From: Candidatus Omnitrophota bacterium
Lineage (GTDB): Bacteria; Omnitrophota; Gorgyraeia; Tantalellales; Tantalellaceae
Reading direction: 5' to 3'
Assembly: GCA_024277375.1 (NCBI GenBank)
Contig: JAJRVD010000053.1
Coordinates: 8,680-72,679 of the forward strand
DNA: 64,000 bases
Shown here: piece after piece, positions 2,990-45,325 of the stretch
How the letters are laid out: each line of letters starts with the position of its first letter
Position numbering within the stretch: position 1 is the first letter of the stretch
Notes under the pieces: model-generated
What the model was told of the DNA's origin: nothing
Databases searched by the model: none
Seen by the model: the letters and a program-made list of their open reading frames with translations, nothing else
Program-made: the position numbers and the translations under genes

Positions 2990-3003
2990 ACAGGGAGCAT
3001 GAG

Positions 3004-4179: not shown

Positions 4180-4198
4180 GAGGGCTAAAGGAGTGGTA

Positions 4199-4795: not shown

Positions 4796-4811
4796 GAGGA
4801 AAGTGTTTGCG

Positions 4812-11973: not shown

Positions 11974-11978
11974 AAACC

Positions 11979-14252: not shown

Positions 14253-14277
14253 GATCGAGCCACCATCAGAAAAACAT

Positions 14278-19881: not shown

Positions 19882-19882
19882 G

Positions 19883-20617: not shown

Positions 20618-20707
20618 TGAATTCGCGGAGGAAATTGTCCTCCGGTGTACTGACAACAACTAAAAGTTCTTTGTGATCTCTGTGGTTGAAAAAAAAGGAG
20701 AAGGAAG

Positions 20708-25448: not shown

Positions 25449-26447
25449 ATGGCAAAAATTCTTATTACCGGTGGTGCGGGATATATTGGAAATGTCATTA
25501 GCAGTGTGGCGTTGCAAAATGGTCATAATGTGAGGGCTATTGACCTTTTATGGTTTGAAAAAGACATTCCGATGGTTCACATGTCCAATCCGTCATATGA
25601 ATTCACAAGGGGTGACATATGTGATGAAGATCTTGTAAATAAAATGTTGGAAGGCGTAGATTTTGTTATTCATACAGCCGCGATCGTTGGAGAACCTGCC
25701 ACAAAAAAATTTCCGGACCTAACAAAAAAAATAAATCAGGATGCTTCTCTGAGTCTTATCAAAAAGGCCGGAGGAGCCGGGGTGAAGGGTCTTATCTTTT
25801 TATCTACCTGTTCCAATTACGGGATAGCAGATGGTATCGCGACCGAAGATACGACTTTGCAGCCGCTTTCACCTTATTCGGAAACAAAAGTAAATGTTGA
25901 GAAGTATTTGATGAATGAGGTTAAAGGTCTTGATTGGGTTATATGCAGGCTTTCTACCGTATACGGAGTTTCGCCAAGAATGAGATTTGATCTGACAGTA
26001 AACGATTTCACGATGAATGCCTATGTTAACAAGTATCTGGACGTTTTTATGCCTCGTTCATATCGTCCATATGTACACGTTTTTGATGTTGCCAGGGTAT
26101 TGATGAATGTTATCGGAAGTTTTGAGCAAGTTAAAAACAATGTATTTAATGTTGGATTTGAGGGCGAAAATTATCAAAAAATACAGATAGCCGATATGGT
26201 TAAGAAATATATACCGGATATTAAGATAGATATTGTTGAAAAAGGTACGGACCTCAGGGATTATCAAGTAGATTTTTCAAAGCTGAAGAAGTATTTTGAT
26301 CTGGAAAAGACCCATATCGTGGAAGATGGGGTCAAAGAAGTTGTGAATTTATTGGAGATGGGGCTTGTGGCCGATCCCCTGGATAGCAGTTATTATAATA
26401 CTACCCCTGATATCGGAGACGGAGAACAAAATGCGACTAGAACTTGA
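25449..26447 (+). CDS. NAD-dependent epimerase/dehydratase (SDR). Candidate nucleotide-sugar 4,6-dehydratase of the nonulosonate pathway.
   Basis: ILITGGAGYIGN Rossmann motif and SPYSETK (YxxxK). Confidence 0.65.
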   Translation: MAKILITGGAGYIGNVISSVALQNGHNVRAIDLLWFEKDIPMVHMSNPSYEFTRGDICDEDLVNKMLEGVDFVIHTAAIVGEPATKKFPDLTKKINQDASLSLIKKAGGAGVKGLIFLSTCSNYGIADGIATEDTTLQPLSPYSETKVNVEKYLMNEVKGLDWVICRLSTVYGVSPRMRFDLTVNDFTMNAYVNKYLDVFMPRSYRPYVHVFDVARVLMNVIGSFEQVKNNVFNVGFEGENYQKIQIADMVKKYIPDIKIDIVEKGTDLRDYQVDFSKLKKYFDLEKTHIVEDGVKEVVNLLEMGLVADPLDSSYYNTTPDIGDGEQNATRT

Positions 26448-27530
26448 TGCTCCGAATGTCGGAGAATTGGAAAAGAAATGTGTATGCGGTACGATAGATT
26501 CCGGTTTTGTCTCCACATTTGGGCCGAATGTAACGAAATTCGAGGAAAAATTTGCCGAATATCTCGGTTCACAAAAGCTGTCTCCACCCAAAGTGGAACA
26601 GCGGCACTCCATGCGGCGCTTTATGAGCTAGGAATAGGTGAGGGGGACGAAGTGATCGTTCCCGCTCTGACTTTTGTGGCAACAGTAAATCCCGTTATGT
26701 ATGTAGGCGCGCGTCCCGTTTTTGCGGATGTGAATATCAATACATGGAATATAGATCCCTCGGCGATAGAGAAAAATATCACTCCAAAGACAAGGGCGAT
26801 AATTCCTGTTCATCTTTATGGGAATCCTTGTGAAATGGATAAGATAATGGAGATAGCAAAAAAGCATGGTCTTTTTGTTATAGAAGATGCTACAGAAAGC
26901 CTGGGCGCTCAGTACGCCGGAAGGTATACGGGGACTTATGGTGATTATGGTTGTTTTAGTTTTAACGGCAATAAGACTATTACGACAGGTGGAGGTGGGA
27001 TGATAGTTGGAAACGATCCGGAAGGCATGGATCATCTGAAGTTTTTAGTAAATCAAGCGAGAGATGAGACCAGAGGGTACTTCCATCCGGAAGTGGGGTT
27101 TAACTACAGAATGACAAATTTGGAAGCCTCCATGGGTCTGGCACAGATGGAGCGTTTGGAAGAGTTGTCTAACAAAAAAGAACGTATACACGCGATATAT
27201 CAAGAAGAACTTGCAGGCGAGAGCTGTATAGATCTGCAGCTGGAATATGAAGGGGGTGTAAGTTCCTGGTGGTTTAATTGTATTTATTTCACCGATGGAA
27301 TGGATCTGGCGGATGTTATGAGACGCTTAAAAAATGAAGGTATTCCGACGCGACGGGTATTTATGCCTATAAACCAGTTTCCTCCGTATGAACGATGTGG
27401 ATCCGGGGATCTCGAAAATTCTCAGAAAATTTACGAAAGAGGCTTGTGTCTGCCGAGTTCTACGTTGAACCGGGAGGAAGACATAGGGTTCGCGTGTAGG
27501 AAAATTAAAGAGCTAATAGCTATTGGCTGA
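26431..27530 (+). pseudogene. DegT/DnrJ/EryC1 aminotransferase (LegC/PseC-like position) with a frameshift in an A-run near 26573..26576 (or a sequencing error)
   Basis: ATG 26431 gives MRLELDAPNVGELEKK ... FAEYLGSQK, then falls out of frame. ORF 26478..27530 continues KAVSTQSGTAALHAALYELGIGEGDEVIVP. One extra A would fuse them. Confidence 0.7.
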
Positions 27531-27542
27531 TGAGAGGTTGAT

Positions 27543-28199
27543 ATGTCTGAGAAAATAATATTAGTTGGCGGCGGTGGACATTGTAAAGTGGTGATAGACG
27601 CTATAAAAAAAGCCGGTATTTTTGAGGTAGAAGGGGTGCTTGATCCAGCGCAGACAGATGATATCCTCGGAGTGAAAATTTGTGGGAACGACAATAAGAT
27701 GAAAGAATTATTTGAAAAAGGCATAAAGAACGCGTTTATCACTGTGGGTTCCACCGGTGATTGTTCCTTGAGAAAAAAGTTATACAAAAAAGCTAAAGAT
27801 ATTGGATTCGAGTTCCCTGTGATAATTCATCCTCGCGCGGAAATAGCGGACGATGTCGGGGGCGAGATTGGTTGCGGAACGTTTATCGCCGCGTCAGCAA
27901 CAGTAAATCCGGGAACGAAAATAGGTGAGAATGTTATTGTCAATACTTCTGCTTCGGTTGATCATGATTGCGTTATAGGCGATTTTGCTCATATTGCTCC
28001 GGGTGCGGTGCTAAGCGGAGGAGTTGAAGTTGGTGAAGAAGCGCATATTGGAACAGGGGCCAACATTACCCAGTACGCGCGGATAGAGAAGGGCGAACTT
28101 GTTAAAGCCGGGAGTCTGGTTTTTAAGAGTAATACGCGAAAAAAAACGTATGTGTGGCCTATGCCTGCAAACGAAGAAAGTGAAAATAATGTCTTATGA
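27543..28199 (+). CDS. NeuD/PglD-family hexapeptide-repeat N-acetyltransferase
   Basis: KIILVGGGGHCKVVIDAI N-terminal Rossmann-like domain plus left-handed beta-helix hexapeptide repeats. Confidence 0.7.
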   Translation: MSEKIILVGGGGHCKVVIDAIKKAGIFEVEGVLDPAQTDDILGVKICGNDNKMKELFEKGIKNAFITVGSTGDCSLRKKLYKKAKDIGFEFPVIIHPRAEIADDVGGEIGCGTFIAASATVNPGTKIGENVIVNTSASVDHDCVIGDFAHIAPGAVLSGGVEVGEEAHIGTGANITQYARIEKGELVKAGSLVFKSNTRKKTYVWPMPANEESENNVL

Positions 28200-29199
28200 A
28201 AAAGTTTTTATAATAGCCGAGGCCGGAGTTAATCATAACGGTAGTTTGGAGACCGCTAGAAAGATGATAGACGCGGCTTCTGAGGCCGGTGTGGACGCGG
28301 TGAAATTCCAAACGTTTCGTGCTGAGAACATAGCGAGCGCTAACGCTCCTAAAGCGTATTATCAGAAAAATACTACTTGCGAGGATGAATCACAGCTTGA
28401 AATGTTAAAAAAACTGGAATTGGACGAAGACGCACATAAAGACCTTAAGGTATATTGTGAGAAAAAAGATGTTATGTTCCTTTCAACTCCGTTCGATCTC
28501 GAAAGTGTGGATATGCTTGAAGATATGGGTCTAGCCCTGTTTAAAGTGCCTTCGGGCGAGATCACGAATCTGCCATACCTGAGAAAGATAGGGGCGTTAA
28601 GGAAGAAGATAATATTGTCCAGTGGGATGTCGAACCTTGATGAAATAGAAGACGCTATTATGGTGCTTGTTGCCGCGGGAACGCGGAAGGAAGACATTAC
28701 GGTGTTGCAATGTAATACCGAGTATCCGACGCCGTATGAAGATGTGAATTTACGCGCGATGTCCACGATAAGAGAATCCTTTGGTGTTGATGTCGGATAT
28801 TCCGACCATACTCTTGGAATAGATATCGTCTCTGCCGCGGTAGGCTTGGGCGCCAGCGTGATCGAGAAACATTTCACACTTGATCGTCAAATGGAAGGCC
28901 CTGATCACGCGGCTTCATTGGAACCTGAGCAGCTTAGGAGGATGGTAGAAGTAATAAGGAACACGGAACTAGCTATGGGTGATGGAATTAAAAAACCGTC
29001 ATCTTCGGAATTTAAAAACATAACGGCAGTTCGGAAAAGTATAGTCGCGGCATGTCCGATCGCTGTCGATGAGGTTTTCACCGAAGATAATCTTACGGTT
29101 AAAAGACCGGCAACGGGTATAAGTCCCGTGGAGTGGGATAATGTTCTTGGAAAGTCCGCAAAGCGGGATTTTGGTCGAGATGAGGCGATTGAGCTATGA
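28189..29199 (+). CDS. NeuB-family nonulosonic acid synthase (PEP-condensing; LegI/PseI/NeuB-like)
   Basis: FIIAEAGVNHNGSLETARKMIDAASEAGVDAVKFQTF is the NeuB signature, with a C-terminal SAF/antifreeze-like domain. Confidence 0.8.
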   Translation: MSYEKVFIIAEAGVNHNGSLETARKMIDAASEAGVDAVKFQTFRAENIASANAPKAYYQKNTTCEDESQLEMLKKLELDEDAHKDLKVYCEKKDVMFLSTPFDLESVDMLEDMGLALFKVPSGEITNLPYLRKIGALRKKIILSSGMSNLDEIEDAIMVLVAAGTRKEDITVLQCNTEYPTPYEDVNLRAMSTIRESFGVDVGYSDHTLGIDIVSAAVGLGASVIEKHFTLDRQMEGPDHAASLEPEQLRRMVEVIRNTELAMGDGIKKPSSSEFKNITAVRKSIVAACPIAVDEVFTEDNLTVKRPATGISPVEWDNVLGKSAKRDFGRDEAIEL

Positions 29200-30080
29200 G
29201 AATAGTATTTGTCGGTACTGTTGAGTTCAGCCGTAGAATGTTAGAAAAATTGATATCCATGGAAGCTTTAATAGTGGGTGTCATAACAAAGAAGACGTCA
29301 GAGGCTAACGCTGATTTTTCGGATCTTTCCGGATTATGTGAAGACAAGGATATACCGTACAAGTATGTTACGGATATAAATTCACCGGATAGTGAGGAGT
29401 GGATAAAGGATAGAGAGCCCGATATTATTTTATGCTTAGGTTTTTCTCAAATATTGGAAGAAAAGATATTGAAAATCGCTCCTATGGGGGTGGTGGGGTA
29501 TCACCCGGCAAAATTACCGCAAAATCGTGGCAGACATCCGATAATTTGGGCGCTGGTCCTGGGGCTTAAGAAGACGGCATCTACTTTCTTTTTTATGGAT
29601 AAAGGTGCTGATAGCGGGGATATATTAAGCCAGGAGGAGATCGAGATCGATACCGAGGACGACGCGGGTACGCTCTACGAAAAGGTCGTGCAGACAGCCT
29701 TGAGTCAACTCAATGATATTTTGCCGCAATTGGAAGGGAAGACGTTTGATCTGATATCACAGAATGGCGTGGAAACGAATTATTGGAGAAAACGTAATAT
29801 GGAAGACGGACGCGTTGATTTTAGGATGACCGCGAGGGCGGTTTGCAACCTGATTAGAGGACTGACCCGGCCATATGTGGGCGCTCATATCAGATATAAT
29901 AACGCGGACATTAAGGTCTGGAAGGCAAAAGAAATAATAACAGACTTCGAGAATTGTGAATATGGCAAGGTTTTGGATGTAAGCGGCGGGCAAATACTAG
30001 TGAAGTGTATGGAGAACGCTGTTCTTTTTATGAAACATGAGTTTAACAAGTTACCCGAAACGGGGGATTATTTGATATGA
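29196..30080 (+). CDS. Formyltransferase (Fmt/ArnA-N-like); candidate amino-sugar N-formyltransferase
   Basis: Formyl_trans_N pattern: VVGYHPAKLPQNRGRHPIIWAL ... DKGADSGDIL. Confidence 0.65.
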   Translation: MRIVFVGTVEFSRRMLEKLISMEALIVGVITKKTSEANADFSDLSGLCEDKDIPYKYVTDINSPDSEEWIKDREPDIILCLGFSQILEEKILKIAPMGVVGYHPAKLPQNRGRHPIIWALVLGLKKTASTFFFMDKGADSGDILSQEEIEIDTEDDAGTLYEKVVQTALSQLNDILPQLEGKTFDLISQNGVETNYWRKRNMEDGRVDFRMTARAVCNLIRGLTRPYVGAHIRYNNADIKVWKAKEIITDFENCEYGKVLDVSGGQILVKCMENAVLFMKHEFNKLPETGDYLI

Positions 30081-30745
30081 AAAATGTTCTGGTATTGGCC
30101 GCTCATCCTGATGATGAGACTTTGGGGTGTGGAGGAACGTTGCTAAGGCACAAGGCGAATGGAGACCGTATCCACTGGCTTATCGCTACGGGTATGTCGA
30201 AAGAGGAGGGGTTCGCGTCGGCGGATATATCTCGAAGAGATAAAGAGATCGAGAAAGTAAGGGGACTGTATGCTTTTGATGGGGTCAGCAAACTAGATAT
30301 TCCTACGACAAAAGTGGATGATGTCCCCATTAATGAGTTGGTGGAAAAGATCTCAAAGGTGTTTCGGGAAGTTGAACCGGAGATATTGTATTTGCCTTTC
30401 AGGGGAGATGTTCATAGTGATCATCGTATGCTTTTTGACGCGGCGTATAGTTGTACGAAAACATTCCGATATCCGTTCATAAAAAAGATCCTTATGATGG
30501 AAATAATAAGTGAAACGGAATTCGTTCCGGGATTCAAGGATGCGGTATTTATCCCGAATTATTTCGTGAACATAGGTAGTTTTCTTGAAAAAAAGATCGA
30601 GATAATGAAGACCTTTGAAAGTGAGCTGGGGGAACAACCTTTTCCGAGAAGTCTTGAGAACATTAGAGCGCTGGCGACGTTCAGAGGAGCAATGTCGGGT
30701 TGTGATCACGCGGAAAGTTTTATGATCTTGAAGGAGATATCGTGA
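30077..30745 (+). CDS. PIG-L/LmbE-family N-deacetylase
   Basis: VLAAHPDDETLGCGGT motif. Confidence 0.75.
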   Translation: MKNVLVLAAHPDDETLGCGGTLLRHKANGDRIHWLIATGMSKEEGFASADISRRDKEIEKVRGLYAFDGVSKLDIPTTKVDDVPINELVEKISKVFREVEPEILYLPFRGDVHSDHRMLFDAAYSCTKTFRYPFIKKILMMEIISETEFVPGFKDAVFIPNYFVNIGSFLEKKIEIMKTFESELGEQPFPRSLENIRALATFRGAMSGCDHAESFMILKEIS

Positions 30746-31917
30746 GAAGGAAGATCTGTGTTTTTACGGGCACACGGGCTGAATACGGTCTTTTGAAGCC
30801 TTTAATGTCGGAAATAAAAGAGGATGAGGGGCTGGATCTGTTTGTAATAGTTTCCGCGATGCATTTGTCGGGAGAATTTGGTCTGACGTATCGAGACATA
30901 GTGGAGGATGGGTTCGAAATAAACGAGAAAGTGGATACAGGGCTTGATTCTGATACATCGATCGGGTTAAGCGCTTCAATGGGAAGAGGAATAGCGGGTA
31001 TTAGTGAAGCTTATTCCAGGTTGGCTCCGGATGTTGTTGTAGTGTTGGGCGACAGGGTCGAGGCTTTTGCGGCCGCCGCGGCGGCAATGATGTCGAGGAT
31101 CCCGATCGCTCATCTGCATGGAGGAGAATCAACTCGGGGGTTGATAGATGAGGCTATAAGACATTCCATTACAAAAATGAGTCATCTTCATTTTACTTCT
31201 GTAGAAGAATATCGAGGCAGAGTGATACAGATGGGAGAACAGCCCGATAAAGTATTCAACGTGGGTGCGATAGGCTTAGATAATATACGGGATATAAATC
31301 TGTTGTCAAAAGAAGAATTGGAAAAAGATCTGGGGATAAAGTTCGGGAAATATAATTTTCTGGTTACATTCCATCCTGTCACACTGGAAGAGGGCGAGTC
31401 CGGAAAACATTTTCGGGAATTATTGGATGCATTAGACCGGAATGCTCATATAAACGCTATCTTTACAAAAGCGAACGCTGACCATGAGGGCAGTGTTATC
31501 AACCGTATGATAGATGAGTATGTTTCTGAGAATAGCGATAGGTCCGTGGTATTTACTTCAATGGGACAGTTACGCTATTTGTCCGCAATGCGTGTGGTAG
31601 ACGCCGTTGTTGGTAATTCTTCAAGCGGGATAATTGAGGCTCCCAGTTTTGGTGTAGGGACAATAAATATCGGGGATAGGCAGGGTGGACGGGTTAGTGC
31701 CGATAGTGTAATAGATTGCGCACCTCGTAAAAGTGACATTATTGCCGCCATTGAAAAACTTTACTCTGAAGATTTTCAGGCAAGTTTATCCGATGTTTTT
31801 AATCCATACGGTGATGGTGGTGTCGCTAAACGCGTGAAAGATGTTTTAAAGAGTTGTGATCTGGCAAATATATTGAAAAAAGTTTTCTATGACATATCAG
31901 GGCAGGTGAAAATATGA
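30742..31917 (+). CDS. UDP-N-acetylglucosamine 2-epimerase, hydrolysing (NeuC/LegG-like)
   Basis: VFTGTRAEYGLLKPL, HLHGGE and GNSSSG blocks of the NeuC/WecB family. Confidence 0.75.
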   Translation: MRRKICVFTGTRAEYGLLKPLMSEIKEDEGLDLFVIVSAMHLSGEFGLTYRDIVEDGFEINEKVDTGLDSDTSIGLSASMGRGIAGISEAYSRLAPDVVVVLGDRVEAFAAAAAAMMSRIPIAHLHGGESTRGLIDEAIRHSITKMSHLHFTSVEEYRGRVIQMGEQPDKVFNVGAIGLDNIRDINLLSKEELEKDLGIKFGKYNFLVTFHPVTLEEGESGKHFRELLDALDRNAHINAIFTKANADHEGSVINRMIDEYVSENSDRSVVFTSMGQLRYLSAMRVVDAVVGNSSSGIIEAPSFGVGTINIGDRQGGRVSADSVIDCAPRKSDIIAAIEKLYSEDFQASLSDVFNPYGDGGVAKRVKDVLKSCDLANILKKVFYDISGQVKI

Positions 31918-32669
31918 AAAATGTGAGGGTAGTGGCGAGATTGGATGTTAAGCCTCCTTATGTGATAAAAGGGGTCCATTTTGAAGGGTTGCGAAAAGTG
32001 GGCACCCCCGAAGGTCTTGCCGGTAAATATTATGAGCAGGGAGTGGATGAGGTCTTTTACATCGATTGTGTGGCAAGTCTTTATCAAAGAGAGATATTGT
32101 ATGATTTTGTGGAAAAGACGGCTAAGAATATATTTGTTCCTTTTTGTGTAGGCGGAGGGGTTAAGAATGTCGATGATGTCGCCAGGCTTCTTCACAGTGG
32201 CGCGGATAAGGTTCTTATGAATACATATGCTATACAGACTCCGGGTCTTATTAAGGAGGCCGCTGAGATATTTGGAAGTCAATGCGTAGTGGTCTCGATA
32301 GAAGCCAAAAAGTGGGATGGATGGTGGGAATGTTATACCGATTGCGGCAGGATCAGAACCGGTAAAAATGCCGTGGAATGGGCAAAAGAAGCGGAAGACC
32401 TGGGGGCGGGTGAAATACTTGTTACTTCGGTTGACACAGAGGGAAGAAGGAAAGGGTTTGACGTTGAACTTACCCGGAAGATATCGGAAAATACAACGGT
32501 TCCTGTAGTCGCTTCAGGTGGAGCAGGTGATCTTTCTCATATTAAAAATGTTATCGAAGATGGTTACGCGGACGCGGTAAGTATCGCATCTCTTTTGCAT
32601 TACGATGAATTTTCTGTAGGTCAAATTAAGGAATTTCTCGCTTCACAAGGAATAGGGGTTGTCATATGA
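31914..32669 (+). CDS. HisF-like cyclase subunit (WbuZ-type, glycan amidine synthesis)
   Basis: (beta/alpha)8 HisF blocks: VPFCVGGGV ... VASGGAGDLSH. Located inside the glycan cluster and paired with a HisH-like gene. Confidence 0.8.
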   Translation: MKNVRVVARLDVKPPYVIKGVHFEGLRKVGTPEGLAGKYYEQGVDEVFYIDCVASLYQREILYDFVEKTAKNIFVPFCVGGGVKNVDDVARLLHSGADKVLMNTYAIQTPGLIKEAAEIFGSQCVVVSIEAKKWDGWWECYTDCGRIRTGKNAVEWAKEAEDLGAGEILVTSVDTEGRRKGFDVELTRKISENTTVPVVASGGAGDLSHIKNVIEDGYADAVSIASLLHYDEFSVGQIKEFLASQGIGVVI

Positions 32670-33271
32670 GTCAGAAAATAGGTGTTGTCGACTATGGGTA
32701 TGCCGGGAATGTTTTTAATATTAGAAAAACCATTGAGAATACCGATAAGACTGTAAGTACTATGATCATAAAAACACAGCAAGATGTTAAAAAAGCGGAT
32801 AAGATCGTTTTGCCGGGCGTTGGATCCTATAAAGACGTGATGGAAAAGATCACCGATCTTAGTGCTATGCTCGAAGAGCAAATACAAAATAAACCTACAC
32901 TTGGAATATGTTTGGGAATGCAGATACTTTCAGAAAAAGGATATGAATTCGGAGAGACTAAAGGGTTCAGTGTGATAGAAGTAGAGGTAAGAAAAATGCC
33001 GGTAAAAGGAAGAGTTCCTCATATAGGATGGGCGCGTATTGAGCCGATAAAGAATTCAAGGATATTAGCCGGTGTGACCTCTGATGATAGTTTTTATTTT
33101 ATGCATTCGTATGAGCTGATAAACTACAAAGATGTTATCGCTTTGTCGGATTATTGTGAACACAAGTTCGTATGCGCGATTGAAAGAGATAATGTTTTCG
33201 GAGTGCAATTCCATCCCGAAAAGAGCAGGGATAGCGGGTTCAGGGTATTCAAGAATTTTATAAACGTATGA
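32666..33271 (+). CDS. HisH-like glutamine amidotransferase subunit (WbuY-type)
   Basis: Class I GATase: GICLGMQIL (catalytic Cys) ... FGVQFHPEKS. Confidence 0.8.
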   Translation: MSQKIGVVDYGYAGNVFNIRKTIENTDKTVSTMIIKTQQDVKKADKIVLPGVGSYKDVMEKITDLSAMLEEQIQNKPTLGICLGMQILSEKGYEFGETKGFSVIEVEVRKMPVKGRVPHIGWARIEPIKNSRILAGVTSDDSFYFMHSYELINYKDVIALSDYCEHKFVCAIERDNVFGVQFHPEKSRDSGFRVFKNFINV

Positions 33272-33288
33272 TAAAGGAGTGGGGCATC

Positions 33289-34524
33289 ATGGAGCGATGT
33301 AATGCTGTAAATAAAAAAGAAGAACAAAGTACAGGGATGTATGGACTCCCCACTGAGGTTAAATTCTGTAAAAAGTGTGTTATGTCCAATCAAAGGCCCT
33401 CTTCCTGTATTGAGTTTAAAAATAAACCGGGCGATAAGAAAAAAACCATTGCTTTTGATGAAGATGGTGTTTGTGACGCGTGCAGGTTCGCGGAAAAGAA
33501 AAAAAATATTAACTGGGAAGAAAGGGAGCAGCAGTTAAAAGAGGTTTTAGATCGGTTCCGCAGTAAGGACGGTAGTTACGATGTTGTGGTCCCGGGTAGC
33601 GGAGGTAAGGACAGTGTAGTTGCCTCATACGTTTTGAAATATAAATATGGCATGCATCCGTTGCTTGTTACCTGGCCTCCGCATAGTTATACTCATATGG
33701 GGAGAGTTAATTTTCAGGCATGGGTGAACGCGGGTTTTGATAATATCAGCTATATGCCGAACCAGAAAGCTCACAGGTTGGTTACGCGTTTGGCTTTTGA
33801 GAACCTTGTCCATCCTTTTCAGCCTTTTATTATCGGGCAAAAAAATCTAGCTCCAAAGATATCGGCTATGTATAACATTCCGTTCGTGGTTTACGGGGAG
33901 AATGAAGCTGAATATGGAAACCCTGTGGATGATAACGATAGCGCTACCAGAGACAGTTCTTTTTATACGCATGATGAGAATTTGGAAAATGTACGTCTTG
34001 GAGGTGTAAGTGCCGTAAAGCTAATGAAAGATCATGGTTTGACCAGAGCGGACTTGGATCCTTATCTTCCGGTTGCCTCCGATCTTCTCAGGAAGGTCGG
34101 CACTGAAGTCCATTATCTTGGATATTATATGAAGTGGGATCCGCAGGAAAGTTATTATTTTTCAGTTGAGAATACTGATTTTTATCCTAACTGCGAACGT
34201 ACGGAAGGCAGCTACAGTAAATATAACAGTCTTGATGACAAAATAGATTGGTTCCATTTCTATACTTACTATATAAAATTCGGGATAGGAAGAGCTACTT
34301 ATGACGCATCGCAGGAAGTCAGGAACGGTCATTTGACCAGAGACGAAGGAGTGCGTTTAGTGAAACGGTTCGACGGGGAATTCCCGCGCAAATACTTTAA
34401 AGACAATCTTGACTATATGGGCATAACAGAAGAAAAGTTTTACGAAATAATTGAAAAAGCACGACCGCCTCATTTGTGGGAGAAAATCAAAGGTGAGTGG
34501 CGGCTTAAACACCAGGTGGGGTGA
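33289..34524 (+). CDS. N-acetyl sugar amidotransferase, PP-loop ATP pyrophosphatase (WbuX/PseA-like). Alternative upstream start 33268.
   Basis: VVPGSGGKDS PP-loop motif. RBS aaggagtgggg before ATG 33289. Confidence 0.7.
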   Translation: MERCNAVNKKEEQSTGMYGLPTEVKFCKKCVMSNQRPSSCIEFKNKPGDKKKTIAFDEDGVCDACRFAEKKKNINWEEREQQLKEVLDRFRSKDGSYDVVVPGSGGKDSVVASYVLKYKYGMHPLLVTWPPHSYTHMGRVNFQAWVNAGFDNISYMPNQKAHRLVTRLAFENLVHPFQPFIIGQKNLAPKISAMYNIPFVVYGENEAEYGNPVDDNDSATRDSSFYTHDENLENVRLGGVSAVKLMKDHGLTRADLDPYLPVASDLLRKVGTEVHYLGYYMKWDPQESYYFSVENTDFYPNCERTEGSYSKYNSLDDKIDWFHFYTYYIKFGIGRATYDASQEVRNGHLTRDEGVRLVKRFDGEFPRKYFKDNLDYMGITEEKFYEIIEKARPPHLWEKIKGEWRLKHQVG

Positions 34525-34526
34525 GT

Positions 34527-35585
34527 ATGAATTGGAAGAAACTTCTTGTAAAAGATGAACTGTCGGTGAAGGATATTCTTAAAAGAATGGATGCCGGCGG
34601 CGAAAAGATACTGTTTATAGTCGGAGAGCATGATAGGCTTAAGGGAGTTATTACTGACGGGGATATAAGACGTCATTTTCTGTCTCATGGAAGTTTGGAC
34701 GAACAAGTCGGGAAGATCTATAATCCCGAACCTTTGTACGTTTTTAAGGGGTACGACAGGCAGGATGTAAAACAGCTAATGGCAAACGAAAAGATCGAAG
34801 TAGTGCCGGTAGTGGATCAGGATAAACATGTTATAGGTGCTTTGTCCTGGACGGATATTTTCGGCAAAGAGAATATTATGCTTGCCGGAACAGTTAACGT
34901 GCCTGTAGTAATAATGGCGGGAGGCAAAGGGAAAAGGTTGGATCCTTTTACAAAGATATTGCCGAAGCCGCTTATCCCTGTGGGAGAAAAGCCAATTATC
35001 GAAATAATAATGGATGAGTTTAATCAATATGGTGTAGAGGACTTTTATGTCACTCTGAACTACAAGGGCGAAATGATAAAGATCTATTTCGCTAACGCGG
35101 AGAAAGAGTATAACGTAAGGTATGTCAGAGAAGAAGAGTTTCTGGGAACGGCGGGAAGTCTTAAACTCTTGCCCGAGAATATAGGGGATACGTTTATAGT
35201 GTCTAACTGCGATATAATAGTGAATATTGACTATGGGGACCTGATAAAGTTCCATAAAGATAATGGCAATTGTCTGACGATAGTTGGATCAATACAACAC
35301 CACAGGATCCCGTATGGTGTTATTGACTTTGAGAAGGAAGGAAAGCTTAAAAAAATAGAAGAAAAACCGGAACTTGATTTTACCGTAAATACGGGGGTTT
35401 ATGTGCTGTCAAAGAAGGTTGTAGACGCTATCCCGGAAAATAAACATTTTGATATGACAGATCTTATTCAAGCTCTTATGGATGATAAGGAAAATATAGG
35501 AGTTTACCCGGTGTCACAAAAATCATACATCGATATAGGGCAGTGGGAGGAATATAAGAAACATATTGAAAATTTGGTGATCTAA
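34527..35585 (+). CDS. CBS-pair + sugar-phosphate nucleotidyltransferase (PtmE-like)
   Basis: Two CBS motifs at the N-terminus, then the NTP-transferase GGKGKRLDPFTKILPKPLIPVGEKPII. Confidence 0.65.
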   Translation: MNWKKLLVKDELSVKDILKRMDAGGEKILFIVGEHDRLKGVITDGDIRRHFLSHGSLDEQVGKIYNPEPLYVFKGYDRQDVKQLMANEKIEVVPVVDQDKHVIGALSWTDIFGKENIMLAGTVNVPVVIMAGGKGKRLDPFTKILPKPLIPVGEKPIIEIIMDEFNQYGVEDFYVTLNYKGEMIKIYFANAEKEYNVRYVREEEFLGTAGSLKLLPENIGDTFIVSNCDIIVNIDYGDLIKFHKDNGNCLTIVGSIQHHRIPYGVIDFEKEGKLKKIEEKPELDFTVNTGVYVLSKKVVDAIPENKHFDMTDLIQALMDDKENIGVYPVSQKSYIDIGQWEEYKKHIENLVI

Positions 35586-35588: not shown

Positions 35589-36320
35589 ATGCGAAAAGAT
35601 AAAAAGATACTGGGAATAGTACCCGCAAGGGGTGGTAGCAAAGGTATTCCAGGTAAAAACATCAAGAATATCGCCGATAAGCCATTAATCTGGTGGACGA
35701 TACAGGAAGCTAAAAAGTGTGGTCTATTGGATAGAACTATTGTGAGTACTGATGACGAGGAAATTTCCAACGTGGCGGTTAATTGTGGTGCCGAAGTTCC
35801 TTTTACGCGTCCCGCCGAAATTTCCGGGGATAACGCGACGTCAGTAGATCTGGTGCTTCATGCTGTTGAATACTTTCGTCAAAAAGGGGAAGAATTCGAT
35901 CTGTTTGTTTTGTTACAACCGACTTCGCCGCTAAGAACAAGTGAGGATATAAGATGTGCTATAGATGTTCTCTTTGATAGGGAGGCTGAGATGGTAGTCT
36001 CGGTTACGCGGTCTTCATCTCATGCGTTATGGACAAATGAGCTGCCTGAAAACGGATGTATGAAAGATTTTTTACCAAAGCGGGTCGTTAATAAACCGCG
36101 GCAGGAAATGCCGGTGGTTTTTCATCCGAACGGAGCGATTTTCGCGGGGGTTATCGATCGATTGGAAAATAACAGACAATTTTATGGAGACAGAACATTT
36201 GCCTACATAATGCCTAAGGAAAGATCCGTTGATATCGATGATATGCTGGACTTTGAGTTGGCGGAAGTTCTGCTTAATAGATCTATCAGGAAAGATCATA
36301 AGATTAGCGAGGAGCGTTAA
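35589..36320 (+). CDS. Acylneuraminate cytidylyltransferase family (CMP-nonulosonate synthetase, NeuA/LegF-like)
   Basis: ILGIVPARGGSKGIPGKNIK ... LLQPTSPLR motifs. Confidence 0.8.
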   Translation: MRKDKKILGIVPARGGSKGIPGKNIKNIADKPLIWWTIQEAKKCGLLDRTIVSTDDEEISNVAVNCGAEVPFTRPAEISGDNATSVDLVLHAVEYFRQKGEEFDLFVLLQPTSPLRTSEDIRCAIDVLFDREAEMVVSVTRSSSHALWTNELPENGCMKDFLPKRVVNKPRQEMPVVFHPNGAIFAGVIDRLENNRQFYGDRTFAYIMPKERSVDIDDMLDFELAEVLLNRSIRKDHKISEER

Positions 36321-36324: not shown

Positions 36325-38214
36325 ATGATCATTGTGGATGATATAAGTTTTGTTAAGCGGAATATCGACGAGATCAAAAAGATCGTGGCTTATGAGGGTG
36401 GTCCGGTAGTTCCACTGTCGGACCCGGTGCTTCTGTTGTTAAGGTCGAAAGGTATAGAGTGTATGGATTATCATGATCTTGAGTCTGCCGGGATGTATGA
36501 AGACGTCTATGCTACCGCGCGGGATTGGGGTTTGCGGTGGTATAAGCCCGAAGGGACAGATCTATCCGAGTTCGGGACATATTCTCCGGGAGCTCTTCTT
36601 GAATGGTCCATGATATTTTTCTTTTCTCATGTCCTTAAGGTGTATCTTGTTCTATCTGAATTGATCAAAAGAGGTGACGCGAGAAAAATAGTATGTATAG
36701 CCGCCAACGATTTTGATCTAAAAAAGTGTTCGATCAAATTGCAGAACATTGACGCGGGACTTCTAGGGCATATTGTACGTGAGGTTAGCGGAGAGGCGCA
36801 ACAACCGGTCGAGTTTAAGCTTGTAAAATTACCGTATCCTAATGAACTTGAAGAACGGAAATTTCATTTTGTTAGATCGGCGGGAAACTATGTAAATCTT
36901 CTCGTATCGGGAGTTTGTTCGTTTTTTGAAAGGTTTTTTCGTGAAAACAGAAAAATACTCTTCTTAGAAGGAGCGCATCATTTTTTTGAGATAATGAAGT
37001 CCCCTTCGTTGAAAAAGATCAAAAAAGTTCATTTTGAAAAGAACGTTGGATTATCGTTGTTCCCGAAGATGTACTCAAATGGAATAAGGATAGTTACACA
37101 CGATAACAGAAAACCAAAAACACCTGAAAAAGGAAACTGTTTTAGCCCGGATAAAATTGACAACGTGCTTTCCGGGTTTTTTATGTACAGGGGCAAAGAT
37201 ATCTTTTCTTTGGTATCGCCCCGGCTAAAGTTTATGTTCGAGGATTATTTTCCCAATGTTGTTTTTTCGGATATTATCGCTGTTGAAAAGATGTTAAAGG
37301 CCGAGTCTCCCGACTTGATCGTGACGGAGAATGATACAACATATTTTGAGAAGATGCTGACAGTTATAGCGAAGAGGTTGTCTATCCGAACTGCCGTTGT
37401 TCAGCATGGCGCGACGTTATGCGAGGATGCCTGTGATAATAAGGGGATCATGGTCCATGACTTTTATCCTTTGACCGCGGACATGTTTTTCGCTTTTGGT
37501 AAGACTACCAAAGATTGGTTTACGAAGATGAAAGTCGATCCCGGAAGGGTAATAGTGACGGGAGGCGCGAGGTTCGACGAATATTACAGGGATAAAGTTT
37601 TAGTAAAGGATAAGCGTAATAAGGCCAGGAAGGTAGCGTTGATATTGCTTAGTGATATGTGGCTGAAAGAAGGAGTCGTTACTCATTATGCCGGGATGAC
37701 CATATTTCATAAGCATATACAGGAGTTCATGAAACTGGCAGAGAAAAATCCGGATATAGATTTTATAATAAGACCGCATGACAATACTCATTTGTGGAGT
37801 GAAGTGTTCAGAAAAGAACTTGGCGTGCTTAATAACATTACGATCTCGCGTGAGAGTGGGCTTAAAGATCTTTTTTCGCGGGTGGATATTGTGATCGGAT
37901 ATTGGTCAACCGCGCTTTTTGAGGCGTTGATCTATGATATTCCGGTCATAAGTCTGGATACGGGAGAATACTATAATCTGTTACCTTTATGGCGGTACGA
38001 GCTTTCTGAAAGGGTCGGGTCTTTCGAGGAATTGGAAAGCGCGCTACGGAAATTTATCCATAACAGAGTTGAAAGAGAGCTGTTTATAAAGGAAACATCC
38101 GAAAAATTGCACCTATTCAATTATGACAATGATGGCAGAGCGGCACAGAGGATAGCGGATGGACTTGGAGAAGTTATCTCGAAACCGAAACCATTGAAGA
38201 GGTGCGCGTTATGA
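36325..38214 (+). CDS. Hypothetical 629-aa protein; candidate nonulosonate/capsule glycosyltransferase (GT-B-like C-terminal half)
   Basis: No firm motif. C-terminal FIIRPHDNTH ... RVDIVIGYWSTALFEALIYDIPVISLD resembles GT-B / glycerophosphotransferase-like folds. Its position directly after the CMP-sugar synthetase is the main argument. Confidence 0.3.
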   Translation: MIIVDDISFVKRNIDEIKKIVAYEGGPVVPLSDPVLLLLRSKGIECMDYHDLESAGMYEDVYATARDWGLRWYKPEGTDLSEFGTYSPGALLEWSMIFFFSHVLKVYLVLSELIKRGDARKIVCIAANDFDLKKCSIKLQNIDAGLLGHIVREVSGEAQQPVEFKLVKLPYPNELEERKFHFVRSAGNYVNLLVSGVCSFFERFFRENRKILFLEGAHHFFEIMKSPSLKKIKKVHFEKNVGLSLFPKMYSNGIRIVTHDNRKPKTPEKGNCFSPDKIDNVLSGFFMYRGKDIFSLVSPRLKFMFEDYFPNVVFSDIIAVEKMLKAESPDLIVTENDTTYFEKMLTVIAKRLSIRTAVVQHGATLCEDACDNKGIMVHDFYPLTADMFFAFGKTTKDWFTKMKVDPGRVIVTGGARFDEYYRDKVLVKDKRNKARKVALILLSDMWLKEGVVTHYAGMTIFHKHIQEFMKLAEKNPDIDFIIRPHDNTHLWSEVFRKELGVLNNITISRESGLKDLFSRVDIVIGYWSTALFEALIYDIPVISLDTGEYYNLLPLWRYELSERVGSFEELESALRKFIHNRVERELFIKETSEKLHLFNYDNDGRAAQRIADGLGEVISKPKPLKRCAL

Positions 38215-39677
38215 GCGAACGTAAGAAAAATATAATTAAGGATGTGACTGCCTATGGAGTGGGTAGGTACATTGCTCAGTTCGTCGGTTTTTTTATAGCT
38301 GTTTTAATGAGAAATTTTCTCGGCCCGCTGCAAATGGGTATGTGGAGTTTGGTTAAGGTGGTTTTGAGTTATGCCATCTATAGCGAGGTAGGAATAACGC
38401 AGGCGGTATATTATAAGATCCCGCTTCATAACGGAAAAGGTGAACGCGACGAAGCGGAAAACATACAGAACGTGGTTTTTGCTTTTATGATACTCGCGAG
38501 TGTGCTTGCCAGTATTTTGATACTCGCGGCAGCTATCATTTTGAAGGACAAAATGCCGAGGGAGCTGTTTGTGGGGTTTCTGGTCTTTCCGGCGTTCTTT
38601 CTCGCGCAAAGGGTATATTCTTACCATGTAATGCTGTTGCGAGCGAACAAAAAGTTTTTTGTCTTAAGTAAAACGTATATATTCGATAGCCTGTTCAACG
38701 TTTTGCTCGTCCTTGTGGTAGTAGGCAAGTTCAGGTTGTATGGTCTGTACGCCGTAAGTGTTTTATTGCCGGTGCTTGATATCTGTTACATAAGGCGTAA
38801 CGTGAAATATAAGATCAAATGGAAGATCATGTGGGACAAGATCGGCGAGTACATAAAATTCGGGTTTCCCGTATTCGTGTCGGGCATATCAATGTTGATG
38901 CTGTATAGCGTCGACAGGATCATGATAGCGAAAATGATAGGGTTGGTTCCGTTAGGTTATTATTCTATCGCTGTCATGACCAGAACGTATACCGCGGAAC
39001 TTTCTGGAAGTTTCGCGGCGGTTCTGTCTCCTTATTTTATCGAAGACTATGGAAAAACGGGGGACATTTCAAAGACAGGAAAGGCGATAACGACGTATAC
39101 GGAGATCATCTCATGTGCTATGGCTATTATCCTCGGGCTTACATATTTGTCATTCCCCGTTTTTGTGCATTACGCTATGCCTAAGTTCTATCCCGGTGTT
39201 CCAGCTATGAAATTAATGCTTGTATGTACGTTTTTTGTGGTTATCGCGATGCAATTGAGGAATCTGTTGATAATGAAGGATAAGCAGACTACGTTGATGA
39301 AAATATCACTTTTTGCCATTGTGTTGAATGTTTGTGTTAACTATGCCGCTATAAGGTCCGGTTTCGGGATCGCGGGGGTCGCTGGAGCCAGTGTCATATC
39401 GGCATTTTCACTGTTTATACTTGTTGCCGCGAGCGCGATACATCATATCAAAGATGTAAAGCTCATGCCGTTTTTAACATATATAGCTATGCTGTTTATG
39501 TATTTTGTGTTGAGCATTTACGCTATTGAGAACATAGTATCTTTGGAAAATCTTATTTATGGGGCTCTGGCTAAGATATTATTGTTTTTGACGGTAGCGA
39601 TCGGTGCTGTTTATTATGTGAACAAGAGGACAGGTGTTATTAATATTGTGCTGGAAGCCATAAGGAAGAAAAAATGA
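38211..39677 (+). CDS. Wzx-like MOP-superfamily oligosaccharide flippase
   Basis: About 12 TM segments in the size range of polysaccharide biosynthesis proteins. ATGA overlap with the upstream gene. Confidence 0.6.
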   Translation: MSERKKNIIKDVTAYGVGRYIAQFVGFFIAVLMRNFLGPLQMGMWSLVKVVLSYAIYSEVGITQAVYYKIPLHNGKGERDEAENIQNVVFAFMILASVLASILILAAAIILKDKMPRELFVGFLVFPAFFLAQRVYSYHVMLLRANKKFFVLSKTYIFDSLFNVLLVLVVVGKFRLYGLYAVSVLLPVLDICYIRRNVKYKIKWKIMWDKIGEYIKFGFPVFVSGISMLMLYSVDRIMIAKMIGLVPLGYYSIAVMTRTYTAELSGSFAAVLSPYFIEDYGKTGDISKTGKAITTYTEIISCAMAIILGLTYLSFPVFVHYAMPKFYPGVPAMKLMLVCTFFVVIAMQLRNLLIMKDKQTTLMKISLFAIVLNVCVNYAAIRSGFGIAGVAGASVISAFSLFILVAASAIHHIKDVKLMPFLTYIAMLFMYFVLSIYAIENIVSLENLIYGALAKILLFLTVAIGAVYYVNKRTGVINIVLEAIRKKK

Positions 39678-41899
39678 CGGATGATCTACATTTTTTTAAA
39701 GATATACATATATCGAGGACTCAAAAAGGCGCGAGGTTCCTGAATATATTCGCAGACTTTCGTCGGGCGGCAAAAAATAACAGGGTACTGTTCTTTTTGT
39801 TTTTAAGCGCGACTGTTTTTACGTCAATAAGTACAGCGAAATTTCTGGGGGCTCTTTTGGGGACGGTGTTCTCTTTTTCTGATCAGATCATGATCTTTGA
39901 AGTTGTTTTGATGCTATTTTGCCTGGCCTGTTTAAAGGGGGCTGTAAAGATATCATCCAGGTTCAGGTGCAGGATGGATGTGAGCATAAGGGACAGTTGG
40001 TTTTTTCTGTTCGCGTTTAACGTGTATTTTGTTACTTTTTTGCCATTTTTTACGAATGCTCCTGTTCTAGGGTTTCTTGTTTCAAGCTTAGCTGTTGCTG
40101 GTACGTTTTCTGTGCTTTATGTCTTTTACGTTAAGAAAATAGCCGTCAAAAAACAACCGGATCTCGAAATACCCGGTACTGTCAAAGCGGATGATCCGGT
40201 GGACTTTATGGTTTCGGGATCGCATACGCGTGAAAAGGTACAGATAAACGGAGATACTCGAGACGCGTTCCTGATGGATATAGACGGAAAAATTAAAATG
40301 GAACTCCCCCCTGATGCAAAAAAAATAAAATTCGCGATTGGCGTAAGAGAATCGATAAAAAAACCAGCGTATAATGCTGTTATCATAAAGGTGTCAGAGC
40401 TGAACGTGGATGGTGAGGAAAATCTTATATATTCGAAATATTTGGAGACGTCACCCGATAATAATACGCGTTCATGGTCAGAAGTGTCTGCCGATCTTGT
40501 TGGGCAGGATCCGTCGAGATCGCGACATATCGTGGTGAAAGTGGAAGCTTCCGGCAATGGGGCTCCTCTGGACGGGGATGAGCGAAGATATTGTTTTTCC
40601 GGACCGCGTCTTTCGGGGAAAAGTAAACCCAGAAAGGTAATTCTTATTGTGGCTGACGCGGTGAGGTCGGATCATGTCGGGTGCTACGGATATGGTCGTC
40701 CGATAACACCGAATATCGATAGTTTGGCGAAGGACGGTGTCAGTTTTGATACGGCTTTTACTCAAGGGCAATTGACGCTTCCTTCATTCATGTCGATGTT
40801 GACGGGAATGTATCCGACATCGCACCACGTGTATCATAGTCAGCACTACAGTATGCTGGGTGAGGCCACCGCGACATTGCCGGAAATATTGCGCAAAAAC
40901 GGATTTGTGACCAGAAGCTATTTTACTCATAGAAGGTTGATGTCTCATTTTGGTTTCGCGAAAGGATTCGATTCGCATCTTTTCAGGCAGTATGATAAAG
41001 AGTGGAATATCGCTACCGCGGATGATGTAACAAATAAAGCTCTTGATATGTTGGAATTCCACAAAGATGATGATCTTTTCCAGATGATACACTTCTTTGA
41101 TACGCATCAGCCTTGTGACCCGCCGGCACCTTTTTCTGAGGTTTTCGACAAAACATATGGCAGGAAGATCATTAAAGACGTTCGGCATGAGTTGATGAAG
41201 GGTAAGAAAACAGGATTTGATGAAGCGGACCTTAATAACTTGATCGCGAGATATGATACTGAGATATCCCGCGTGGATATGAAAATAGGTATATTAATGG
41301 ATCGCTTGAAGAGGGAAGGGCATTATGAGGACGCGATGATCATAGTTACAGCCGATCATGGTATGTTGTTGAACGATCAAGGGAGTTTGACGGATATGAC
41401 CCTGTTCGACGAGATCGTGAAGGTACCTTTCATTGTTAAATTTCCTGAATCTGCCGAGGTGTCCAAAGGTGTCCCTGTTGAGGACAGTGTTATCGAGGCG
41501 AACATAGATATAATGCCTACGGTACTTGATGTATGTGGCATAGATGTGCCCCCAACCGTTCAGGGTAAAAGTGTTTTTCCTTTAGCGAAGGGGGAGGGAT
41601 CAATGAAGGAGTATGCTATTTCGGAATCATTATTTGATGATATTTATTCGGTATCGCTGAGGGATCAGCGATACCGGTACACTTTTAAGACAGAATTCGA
41701 CATATTGAAGTTCAATAACTATAGGGAGTCGCGTACGGAGGAACATGTTTTTAAAGCAGACGCGAGGATGCCAGAGTCGGATGTGGACCAAAACGAAAAA
41801 GCTACTTTTGTAAATAAGTACAAAACTGTGGTAGAACAGCATATAAAACAGAGTTTGGATATGAACAACAATAGTAAATGGAGGAAAGATGGATTTTAA
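39674..41899 (+). CDS. LtaS/phosphoglycerol- or phosphoethanolamine-transferase-like membrane enzyme (sulfatase fold, Thr nucleophile)
   Basis: Five N-terminal TM segments plus an extracytoplasmic sulfatase-fold domain: VILIVADAVRSDHVGCYGYG ... LTLPSFMSMLTG ... TADHG. Thr replaces the Cys/Ser formylglycine site. Confidence 0.6.
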   Translation: MTDDLHFFKDIHISRTQKGARFLNIFADFRRAAKNNRVLFFLFLSATVFTSISTAKFLGALLGTVFSFSDQIMIFEVVLMLFCLACLKGAVKISSRFRCRMDVSIRDSWFFLFAFNVYFVTFLPFFTNAPVLGFLVSSLAVAGTFSVLYVFYVKKIAVKKQPDLEIPGTVKADDPVDFMVSGSHTREKVQINGDTRDAFLMDIDGKIKMELPPDAKKIKFAIGVRESIKKPAYNAVIIKVSELNVDGEENLIYSKYLETSPDNNTRSWSEVSADLVGQDPSRSRHIVVKVEASGNGAPLDGDERRYCFSGPRLSGKSKPRKVILIVADAVRSDHVGCYGYGRPITPNIDSLAKDGVSFDTAFTQGQLTLPSFMSMLTGMYPTSHHVYHSQHYSMLGEATATLPEILRKNGFVTRSYFTHRRLMSHFGFAKGFDSHLFRQYDKEWNIATADDVTNKALDMLEFHKDDDLFQMIHFFDTHQPCDPPAPFSEVFDKTYGRKIIKDVRHELMKGKKTGFDEADLNNLIARYDTEISRVDMKIGILMDRLKREGHYEDAMIIVTADHGMLLNDQGSLTDMTLFDEIVKVPFIVKFPESAEVSKGVPVEDSVIEANIDIMPTVLDVCGIDVPPTVQGKSVFPLAKGEGSMKEYAISESLFDDIYSVSLRDQRYRYTFKTEFDILKFNNYRESRTEEHVFKADARMPESDVDQNEKATFVNKYKTVVEQHIKQSLDMNNNSKWRKDGF

Positions 41900-45296: not shown

Positions 45297-45325
45297 TTGG
45301 ATAAAATAAAAGGGAGGAACTATCG

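Follow-up and report, generated by a model that had tools for sequence, protein, structure and literature searches.

A contig of a Candidatus Omnitrophota bacterium carries a long operon for a CMP-activated nonulosonic acid, and the question raised by this locus is which enzyme transfers the finished sugar. We address it for a window of 64,000 nucleotides (contig JAJRVD010000053.1, positions 8,680 to 72,679), the whole stretch of DNA that was analysed and the frame for all coordinates below. At the centre of the question is an open reading frame (ORF) at 36325..38214 on the + strand, which translates into 629 codons plus a stop and lies between the gene for a CMP-nonulosonate synthetase (35589..36320, +) and that for a Wzx-type Polysacc_synt flippase (38211..39677, +). 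Its length and position are as described in the original prediction, an annotation made from the sequence alone that proposed the product as a candidate novel nonulosonate transferase. Profile searches, a structural model and gene neighbourhoods make it likely that the target is a glycosyltransferase that uses a CMP-activated sugar of the legionaminic-acid type and acts before flipping. It represents a divergent clade of a known, biochemically uncharacterised kind of enzyme; it is set apart by an N-terminal domain that matches no solved structure and a permuted His-Pro (HP) motif.

Family, fold and conserved residues

The best curated match of the target is NF046086, 'BFO_1060 family glycosyltransferase' (70.3 bits, E 1.6e-19, against a cut-off of 200 bits), with the best stretch covering model positions 205-364 of 365 and the C-terminal ~170 residues of the protein. 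TIGR04396, 'surface carbohydrate biosynthesis protein', one of the models that the original prediction had proposed to search, aligns residues 458-624 to positions 204-369 of 427 (54 bits, E 1.5e-14, under its cut-off of 125 bits). Two models of ~600 residues, TIGR04331 (LIC12162; 16.8 bits, E 0.0022, cut-off 225) and TIGR04326 (LIC13510; 17.1 bits, E 0.0014, cut-off 250), also score below threshold; these matches run almost collinearly along the models and the target, which at the sequence level suggests the same long architecture. A weak precomputed match to PF27859 (LIC12162) is found in two close homologues. Given these curated relatives in NCBIfam, the label 'novel' was an overstatement.

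In Pfam, Epimerase_2 (PF02350) matches residues 317-550 at 32.1 bits (E 7.3e-8), marginally over its gathering score of 30.6, and sub-threshold GT4 matches are also seen. Of the three Pfam models put forward for checking, PF04464 (Glyphos_transf) does match, at 15.7 bits and E 0.0076, and stays below its gathering score of 22.1, while PF05159 (Capsule_synth) and PF01973 (Maf) gave nothing. Together with the sialyltransferase families GT38/42/52/80, these two are absent at E<=10, in a search whose HMMER filters can drop very weak matches. The protein thus falls outside the classical sialyltransferases and Maf, as had been judged by eye.

A word-indexed search returned seven relatives with 37-43% identity to the target, and two further searches of this type (alignments A1 and A2) yielded little more, namely a few partial matches that were short and weak. 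With a profile built from the seven relatives, an exhaustive HMMER search, counted in representatives of 50%-identity clusters, found about 23 at E<1e-100, 66 at E<1e-30, 1,604 at E<1e-10 and 6,260 at E<1e-3. Since homologues of the target reach E values of 1e-113 to 1e-169, the gene is not a chance ORF. Superfamily members are mostly 600-650 residues long (about 620) and align end to end, so the two-part architecture described below is widespread. In a sample of 57 members, BFO_1060 was a top family in 56 and TIGR04396 in 55, and across the family both score far above the wecB and NeuC models. The TarF, TarL and TagB models were matched by one member each and the KpsS model by two. None of the 57 members reached the cut-off of either family, and none of 10 shorter relatives reached that of NF046086.

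An AlphaFold model computed from a seven-sequence alignment (mean pLDDT 77.8, pTM 0.78) has a GT-B fold, with two Rossmann-like lobes and conserved residues after strands 331-335, 355-359, 478-483 and 522-525. Foldseek matches it to GT-B proteins in the PDB at E 1e-12 to 1e-10, with target-normalised TM scores of 0.6-0.7. The modelling and fold search proposed at the outset therefore gave the GT-B result. The first lobe (residues ~206-430; 36940..37614, +) begins near residue 206, with a strand at 209-214, and is supported by Foldseek matches to epimerases and MshA and by hhalign and HMM alignments; this middle part of the protein is basic (pI 9.3) and is presumed to form the acceptor side. 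The second, TagF-like lobe (residues ~431-629; 37615..38211, +) carries the NF046086 and TIGR04396 matches and aligns with TarL and TagF, and is presumed to form the cytidine-nucleotide side. Against solved structures, the superfamily profile matches 2-epimerases (6e-11), TarL (2.2e-10), a GT28 diacylglycerol glucosyltransferase (6e-9), TagF (2.1e-7) and KpsC (3e-4). A profile of the distant clade (alignment A5) matches the TagF-like capsule polymerase Cps3D at 6.5e-7, a match at the level of sequence profiles.

Preceding the GT-B part is a family-specific accessory alpha/beta domain of 205 residues (36325..36939, +), delimited by secondary structure in the model, in which W72 is conserved in 96% and G89 in 88% of the 57-member sample. 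Modelled alone (pLDDT 76.5), it had no significant Foldseek match in the PDB (best E 0.012, TM <= 0.38). We rejected any specific identity for it, because the search returned generic Rossmann-like noise (E >= 0.012). The sole hydrophobic segment of the protein, residues 96-114, also lies here. As this segment is borderline (Kyte-Doolittle 1.77) and is modelled as a helix within a folded domain, a reading as membrane protein was rejected in favour of peripheral association at most.

The original prediction found no recognisable catalytic motif, which was too strong: a collinear set of conserved GT-B/TagF-like motifs is present. In the first lobe these are D337 (37333-37335, +), Q360-H361-G362 (37402-37410, +) and T412-G413-x-x-R416-x-D418 (+; T-G-G-A-R-F-D, residues 412-418); in the second, R483-P-H485 (37771-37779, +), S528-T529...E533 (37906-37923, +) and D603-G604...R609 (+; residues 603-609). 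Conservation in the 57 sequences is 79-100% for D337, Q360, H361, G362, P382, G392, T412, G413, R416, D418, S528, T529, E533, P540, D603, G604 and R609. Two peptides quoted by the original prediction, IIRPHDNTH (residues 481-489) and GYWSTALFEALIYDIPVISLD (residues 525-545), are found in the translation, and the glycerophosphotransferase-like character it assigned to the C-terminal part agrees with the GT-B model and with the order of these motifs. Aligned to the superfamily profile, TarL and TagF match four of them in sequence: T-G-x-P-R-x-D corresponds to T412-G-G-A-R-F-D418, K-x-H-P to R483-P-H485, D-Y-S-S...E/D to G-Y-W-S528-T529...E533, and D-G-x-A-S to D603-G604...R609. This collinearity marks the nucleotide-side lobe as one of the cytidine-nucleotide-binding type, as in TagF, TarL and KpsC. 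In distant members the HP motif reads K-L-H-P (His in 30/40, Pro in 29/40), whereas the target clade has a permuted form, R-P-H-[SDEH] (His in 13/17), in which the target keeps the His and the Pro is shifted. D337, H361, H485 and S528 each directly follow a beta strand in the model, the usual place of residues lining a GT-B cleft. No claim is made for a D/E-D/E-G sialyltransferase motif; a K/R-E-G at 448-450 is conserved only in the close clade.

Operon position and synteny

The gene stands within a long run of tightly packed genes on the same strand, of which the stretch at 25449..35585 (+) was assigned by NCBIfam scans to nonulosonate biosynthesis of the legionaminic-acid type. In order, this run encodes an SDR dehydratase, a LegC-family aminotransferase, a NeuD/PglD-type acetyltransferase, the NeuB synthase (504 bits), a formyltransferase, a PIG-L-type deacetylase, a NeuC-type hydrolysing 2-epimerase (483 bits), a WbuZ/HisH/WbuX amidotransferase trio and a CBS-domain nucleotidyltransferase, and leads to the CMP-nonulosonate synthetase, which would make the presumed donor (TIGR03584 PseF-type model, 1.4e-48, below cut-off; KdsB-like). 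It is the set expected for a GDP-GlcNAc-dependent legionaminic-acid route with acetamidino and/or formyl tailoring, an assignment for which we take the established pathway as given.

Eight distinct loci make up the close set: the window, P0002 (L001/L002), P0003 (L003/L004), P0006 (L005/L006), P0005 (L007, on the same contig as L010), L008, L009 and L011. Their homologues come from Omnitrophota and Planctomycetia and are 37-43% identical to the target where measured. NeuB and/or CTP_transf_3 cytidylyltransferase genes cluster around all eight. A cytidylyltransferase gene immediately precedes the target or its homologue in the window, L007 and L011, and a Polysacc_synt flippase directly follows the target homologue in four loci (window, L001, L003 and L008). 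A sulfatase-family membrane protein comes next after the flippase in the window and in L008, the latter from an Omnitrophota genome (13341-15518; tblastn 4e-173); L003 16366-18450 was grouped with these two.

The association extends to a clade of distant relatives, which share about 20% identity with the target. Metagenome loci of at least 10 kb, fetched with alignment A5, were searched by tblastn with the NeuB and CMP-synthetase proteins of the window. A homologue of one or the other was present in 22 of the 29 loci with a solid family match, and both in 11, compared with one of 12 control loci that had only a short, weak GT-B match (Fisher's exact test, p about 1e-4). The contrast is large despite a crude control.

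Regarding the limits of the gene, a mechanical ORF list also gives a longer form with a TTG start at 36229. We prefer the ATG at 36325 because the TAA of the synthetase gene ends at 36320, only a 4-nt spacer upstream, because an AGGAG ribosome-binding site read from the sequence (36310..36314, +) lies 10 nt before it, and because all homologue alignments begin at its Met. At the other end, the ATG of the flippase gene (38211) overlaps the target TGA (38212-38214) as ATGA, which suggests translational coupling. Of the ATGA-type overlaps that had been described for this gene, the downstream one therefore exists, and the upstream junction is the spacer. Horizontal acquisition was considered and set aside, the GC content of the gene (0.417) being the same as that of the window (0.420).

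The flippase itself (Pfam PF13440 and PF01943) has nine hydrophobic segments. The 741-aa product of the next gene (39674..41899, +) is a membrane-anchored sulfatase-family protein of LtaS/EptA-like architecture (Pfam Sulfatase, 1.7e-43; at least four N-terminal hydrophobic segments). It is probably a phospho-group transferase of the periplasm that would act on the flipped glycan. Further downstream follow a barrel-only pyruvate-kinase-like protein, a CDP-alcohol phosphatidyltransferase, a nucleotidyltransferase, an EamA transporter, a radical-SAM/SPASM protein and a phosphonate module based on a PEP mutase. In the other scanned ORFs of the window, glycosyltransferase matches are limited to GT2, GT4 and GT-C (PMT_2, YfhO); no Maf or classical sialyltransferase family was found among them, in a scan that covered all but a few short ORFs.

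Two observations on the related loci stand apart. Radical-SAM proteins of both the B12-binding and the SPASM type recur in nonulosonate loci (L001 7200-9957 and 15486-19781; L003 715-4963; L008 7959-9995; L009 8852-9955), immediately upstream of the target homologue in L008 and L009, and may serve unusual sugar tailoring such as C-methylation; the window has radical-SAM genes at 22938-24998 (-), 45326-46528 and 54802-56292. The P0002 locus (L001) contains three CTP_transf_3 genes (6456-7184, 17727-17948 and 18043-18795), one a 73-aa fragment, which may mean that two or more acid sugars are activated with CMP in this cluster.

The proposed reaction and competing explanations

The suggestion that the target is a CMP-nonulosonate-dependent transferase is supported computationally by its kinship with the BFO_1060 family, by the GT-B model and by the NeuB/CMP-synthetase synteny. 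We are now able to propose a scheme for its action, in which the donor, the residue roles, the acceptor and the stereochemical outcome are what we infer. The target would be a cytoplasmic, probably membrane-associated GT-B glycosyltransferase; the basic middle lobe and the hydrophobic helix 96-114 fit peripheral membrane association. Its donor would be the CMP-activated nonulosonate of legionaminic-acid type made by the twelve upstream genes, and its acceptor most likely a polyprenyl-linked glycan on the cytoplasmic side of the membrane. The Wzx protein, probably coupled to the target in translation, would then flip the product, which would be decorated further outside the cytoplasm. By analogy with other GT-B enzymes, the C-terminal lobe is predicted to bind the cytidine nucleotide, with R483 and H485 contacting the phosphate of CMP, S528-T529 at a helix N-terminus and E533 contacting phosphate and ribose, and R609 contacting a phosphate or carboxylate. 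The acceptor site would lie in the middle lobe, where D337 would serve as general base, possibly aided by Q360 and H361. The N-terminal domain is a candidate for acceptor or membrane recognition; the TPR-plus-GT-B layout of FlmG offers an analogy for the former and suggests that this domain may recognise the acceptor.

Nonetheless, a number of points weigh against this assignment. The target stays below the cut-off of every related curated family, NF046086 and TIGR04396 among them, and the one Pfam family for which it exceeds the gathering score is Epimerase_2. The 46 best Foldseek matches in the PDB are UDP-GlcNAc 2-epimerases, with MshA at rank 47. The residue roles are made uncertain by the target clade itself: its His-Pro motif is permuted, 4 of the 17 sequences have R or Q where the target has H485, and 7 have Asn in place of H361. 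The synteny control was small, with 12 loci, and not taxon-matched, and some loci are near-duplicates (L022, L024). No initiating phosphoglycosyltransferase was found in the window, which leaves the acceptor undefined. Finally, the functions of the target and its close relatives are predictions, and the related Tannerella enzymes were validated genetically alone.

A special case of the proposed glycosyltransferase is one whose acceptor is the same sugar, that is, a polymerase building an oligo- or poly-nonulosonate chain in the manner of a polysialyltransferase. We regard this as unlikely. TagF-like GT-B enzymes such as TarL, TagF and Cps3D are often processive polymerases, no other cytoplasmic glycosyltransferase is encoded in the conserved locus core, and the WbuX/Y/Z acetamidino-forming set of the operon fits the sugar chemistry of Legionella, whose legionaminic-acid homopolymer would be a second parallel. 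Speaking against a polymerase are export by a Wzx flippase, where long cytoplasmic homopolymers usually leave through an ABC transporter, and a sequence that bears no sign of processivity.

The order of the C-lobe motifs also raises the prospect of a TagF/TagB-type phosphotransferase that moves an alcohol-phosphate or phosphonate, rather than a nonulosonate, onto a glycan. Possible substrates would be CDP-glycerol, as a source of glycerol-phosphate, or the CMP conjugate of 2-aminoethylphosphonate. The match to TarL and TagF, the weak PF04464 match, and the phosphonate module of PEP mutase and cytidylyltransferase that lies downstream in the window with two nucleotidyltransferases would all suit such an enzyme, and L005/L006 likewise have a phosphonate module. 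Phosphonate genes, however, accompany the family only in these two cases, whereas NeuB and/or a CMP-ulosonate synthetase is found in all eight close and 22 of the 29 distant loci. CDP-alcohol phosphatidyltransferases and the sulfatase-family transferase of the same loci already account for phospho-group transfer, and the top curated family consists of Pse/Leg (pseudaminic and legionaminic acid) transferases, with the single matches to TarF, TarL and TagB noted above. A phosphotransferase function is therefore improbable.

A further variant retains the nonulosonate donor and changes the acceptor and what follows: in place of extending a conventional undecaprenyl-diphosphate oligosaccharide, the target would load the sugar directly onto polyprenyl phosphate or another membrane lipid, Wzx would flip this single sugar, and GT-C enzymes (three PMT_2, one YfhO) would transfer it to proteins or polymers outside. 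Compatible with this are a locus core that encodes neither an initiating phosphoglycosyltransferase nor a second cytoplasmic glycosyltransferase, PMT/PMT_2 genes upstream in L001 and L007 and several in the window, the basic middle lobe and the N-terminal hydrophobic helix. We know of no description of a three-component extracytoplasmic 'nonulosonylation' route for any sialic-acid-like sugar. If this variant were true it would establish one, and we consider it quite improbable.

There remains the possibility of a nucleotide-sugar 2-epimerase or hydrolase-like enzyme, related to NeuC, WecB or PseG, that carries out an extra tailoring step in nonulosonate synthesis. Beyond the Epimerase_2 score and the Foldseek ranking, a close-family profile finds epimerases exclusively among PDB sequences, and hhalign against the NeuC of the window gives 95.7% probability. 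As epimerases and GT-B transferases share their fold, the fold match alone does not discriminate between them. The catalytic carboxylates of WecB and NeuC are the Asp of H-G-D, the Glu of E-A-G or G-G-E and a second Glu/Asp ~14 residues later. In alignments, rather than in a structure superposition, the Glu of the (E/G)-A/G-G motif falls on Q360 of the target (Gln in 50/57; 6vlb alignment) and the second acid in a non-conserved, low-confidence loop at 363-377. The original prediction had named clear homology to an unrelated enzyme class as a reason to abandon the transferase; Epimerase_2 comes close to this, and with the two catalytic Glu unconserved the resemblance reduces to fold-level kinship. 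An epimerase is thus very unlikely, since the catalytic Glu is lost, a bona fide NeuC is already encoded in the operon, epimerases have no counterpart of the 205-residue N-terminal domain, and BFO_1060 and TIGR04396 outscore the epimerase models family-wide.

The surrounding glycan island and known systems

Around the target the window has the character of a glycan island, in which several features merit description in their own right. At its start (10-6242), a carbamoyltransferase, an ATP sulfurylase, an APS kinase and a phosphodiesterase/sulfatase-like protein suggest sulfation and carbamoylation of a surface glycan. GT-C proteins are dense at 10258-15960 and 52274-53824, where three PMT_2-type proteins and one of YfhO type are encoded; PMT/PMT_2 genes upstream of the nonulosonate cluster recur in L001 and L007, and this abundance points to extracytoplasmic glycosylation steps using lipid-linked sugars. 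A 917-aa CotH kinase plus beta-helix protein, a VTC-domain protein and a DUF4956 membrane protein follow one another at 17128-21391 and look like a conserved trio. A DltB-like MBOAT gene at 21484-22928 is apparently split: the ORF at 21972-22928 covers only DltB model positions 152-376, and an overlapping ORF in another frame (21484-22062) has no Pfam match, which may reflect a frameshift, a pseudogene or an assembly error.

The phosphonate module of the window (46715-49452, 41889-46528 and 51598-52287), shared with L005/L006, contains a PEP mutase fused to an NTP_transf_3 cytidylyltransferase-like domain and a TPP enzyme resembling phosphonopyruvate decarboxylase. With it are found the barrel-only pyruvate-kinase-like protein (329 aa), two CDP-alcohol phosphatidyltransferases, the nucleotidyltransferase, the EamA transporter and the radical-SAM/SPASM protein. 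The CDP-alcohol phosphatidyltransferase at 42875 has homologues that adjoin the target family in L003, L005/L006 and L009. These genes suggest that the nonulosonate glycan is decorated with a phosphonate or a phospho-alcohol.

The wider significance of the target follows from how few comparable enzymes have been named. In the literature that we retrieved, the only enzymes named as attaching Leg or Pse are the flagellin enzymes Maf and FlmG, KpsS1 (GT118) and a genetically defined pair from Tannerella. So short a list is a constraint on the chemoenzymatic synthesis of these sugars as well as on the understanding of bacterial surface mimicry. The target marks a compact clade within a very large superfamily (the 1,604 representatives at E<1e-10), and it is this superfamily that occurs together with nonulosonate synthase genes across environmental phyla. 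If the glycosyltransferase assignment is right, the family would be a rich source of nonulosonate transferases, and the N-terminal domain may be a new acceptor-recognition module. As a predicted member of an enzyme class already suspected, the protein is likely to be useful to specialists rather than surprising.

Overall, the target is clearly of the same kind as the Tannerella enzymes and as the 'surface carbohydrate biosynthesis' families that curators had already placed near nonulosonate genes. BFO_1060 is the homologue, in Tannerella forsythia strain 92A2, of Tanf_01245 and TFUB4_00887. The genes for these two lie immediately after the CMP-sugar locus, and the proteins have been described as TagB-like and of GT-B type, with an HP motif; when the genes are deleted, the S-layer O-glycan lacks its terminal Pse/Leg derivative, which reconstitution brings back (PMC5420450). 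The target shares with this family its C-lobe, for which BFO_1060 is the best curated match, and, as in all close loci, a gene position adjoining a CMP-Pse/Leg biosynthesis locus. It differs in its score (70 bits against a cut-off of 200), in its length (629 aa against 442-445 aa), in the extra N-terminal domain, presumably absent from the Tannerella proteins, in the permutation of His-Pro to R-P-H-x, and in its hosts, which are Omnitrophota and Planctomycetia rather than Bacteroidota. C-lobe homology also links it to TIGR04396, TIGR04331 and TIGR04326, families that themselves have no biochemically defined function. A literature search on the TIGR and LIC identifiers returned a single incidental mention; an LIC12162-family gene lies downstream of neuABC in Herbaspirillum (PMC6679464).

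TagF and TarL have their C-lobe motifs in the same order as the target (G-x-P-R-x-D, K/R-x-H-(P), Y-S-S/W-S-T...E and D-G-x-A-S) and, like Cps3D, use cytidine-nucleotide donors. All three transfer alditol-phosphate, however, and their loci carry TagD/TarIJ-type genes in place of the NeuB and CMP-ulosonate synthetases seen here. WecB and NeuC (PF02350) provide the closest solved folds. In HMM and profile alignments to the N. meningitidis 2-epimerase and to the NeuC of the window, D337 is equivalent to the epimerase H-G-D Asp and H485 to the nucleotide-binding His, whereas Q360 replaces the catalytic Glu, the second acid is unconserved and the N-terminal domain is additional. A CMP-activated 2-keto-3-deoxy acid sugar as presumed donor is what the target has in common with KpsS1 (GT118), KpsC/KpsS (GT107), WbbB (GT99), KrkA (GT140), Maf, FlmG and the sialyltransferases. 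Matches to KpsC and KpsS are confined to weak ones in the C-lobe (KpsC 3e-4; KpsS model 2/57), and GT99, GT107, GT118 and GT140 have a reduced, modified GT-B fold with a helical subdomain (PMC12887879), an architecture from which that of the target differs; Maf, in turn, is GT-A-like. In the combination of an N-terminal domain for acceptor recognition with a GT-B donor domain, the predicted layout of the target resembles that of FlmG, whose TPR repeats it lacks.

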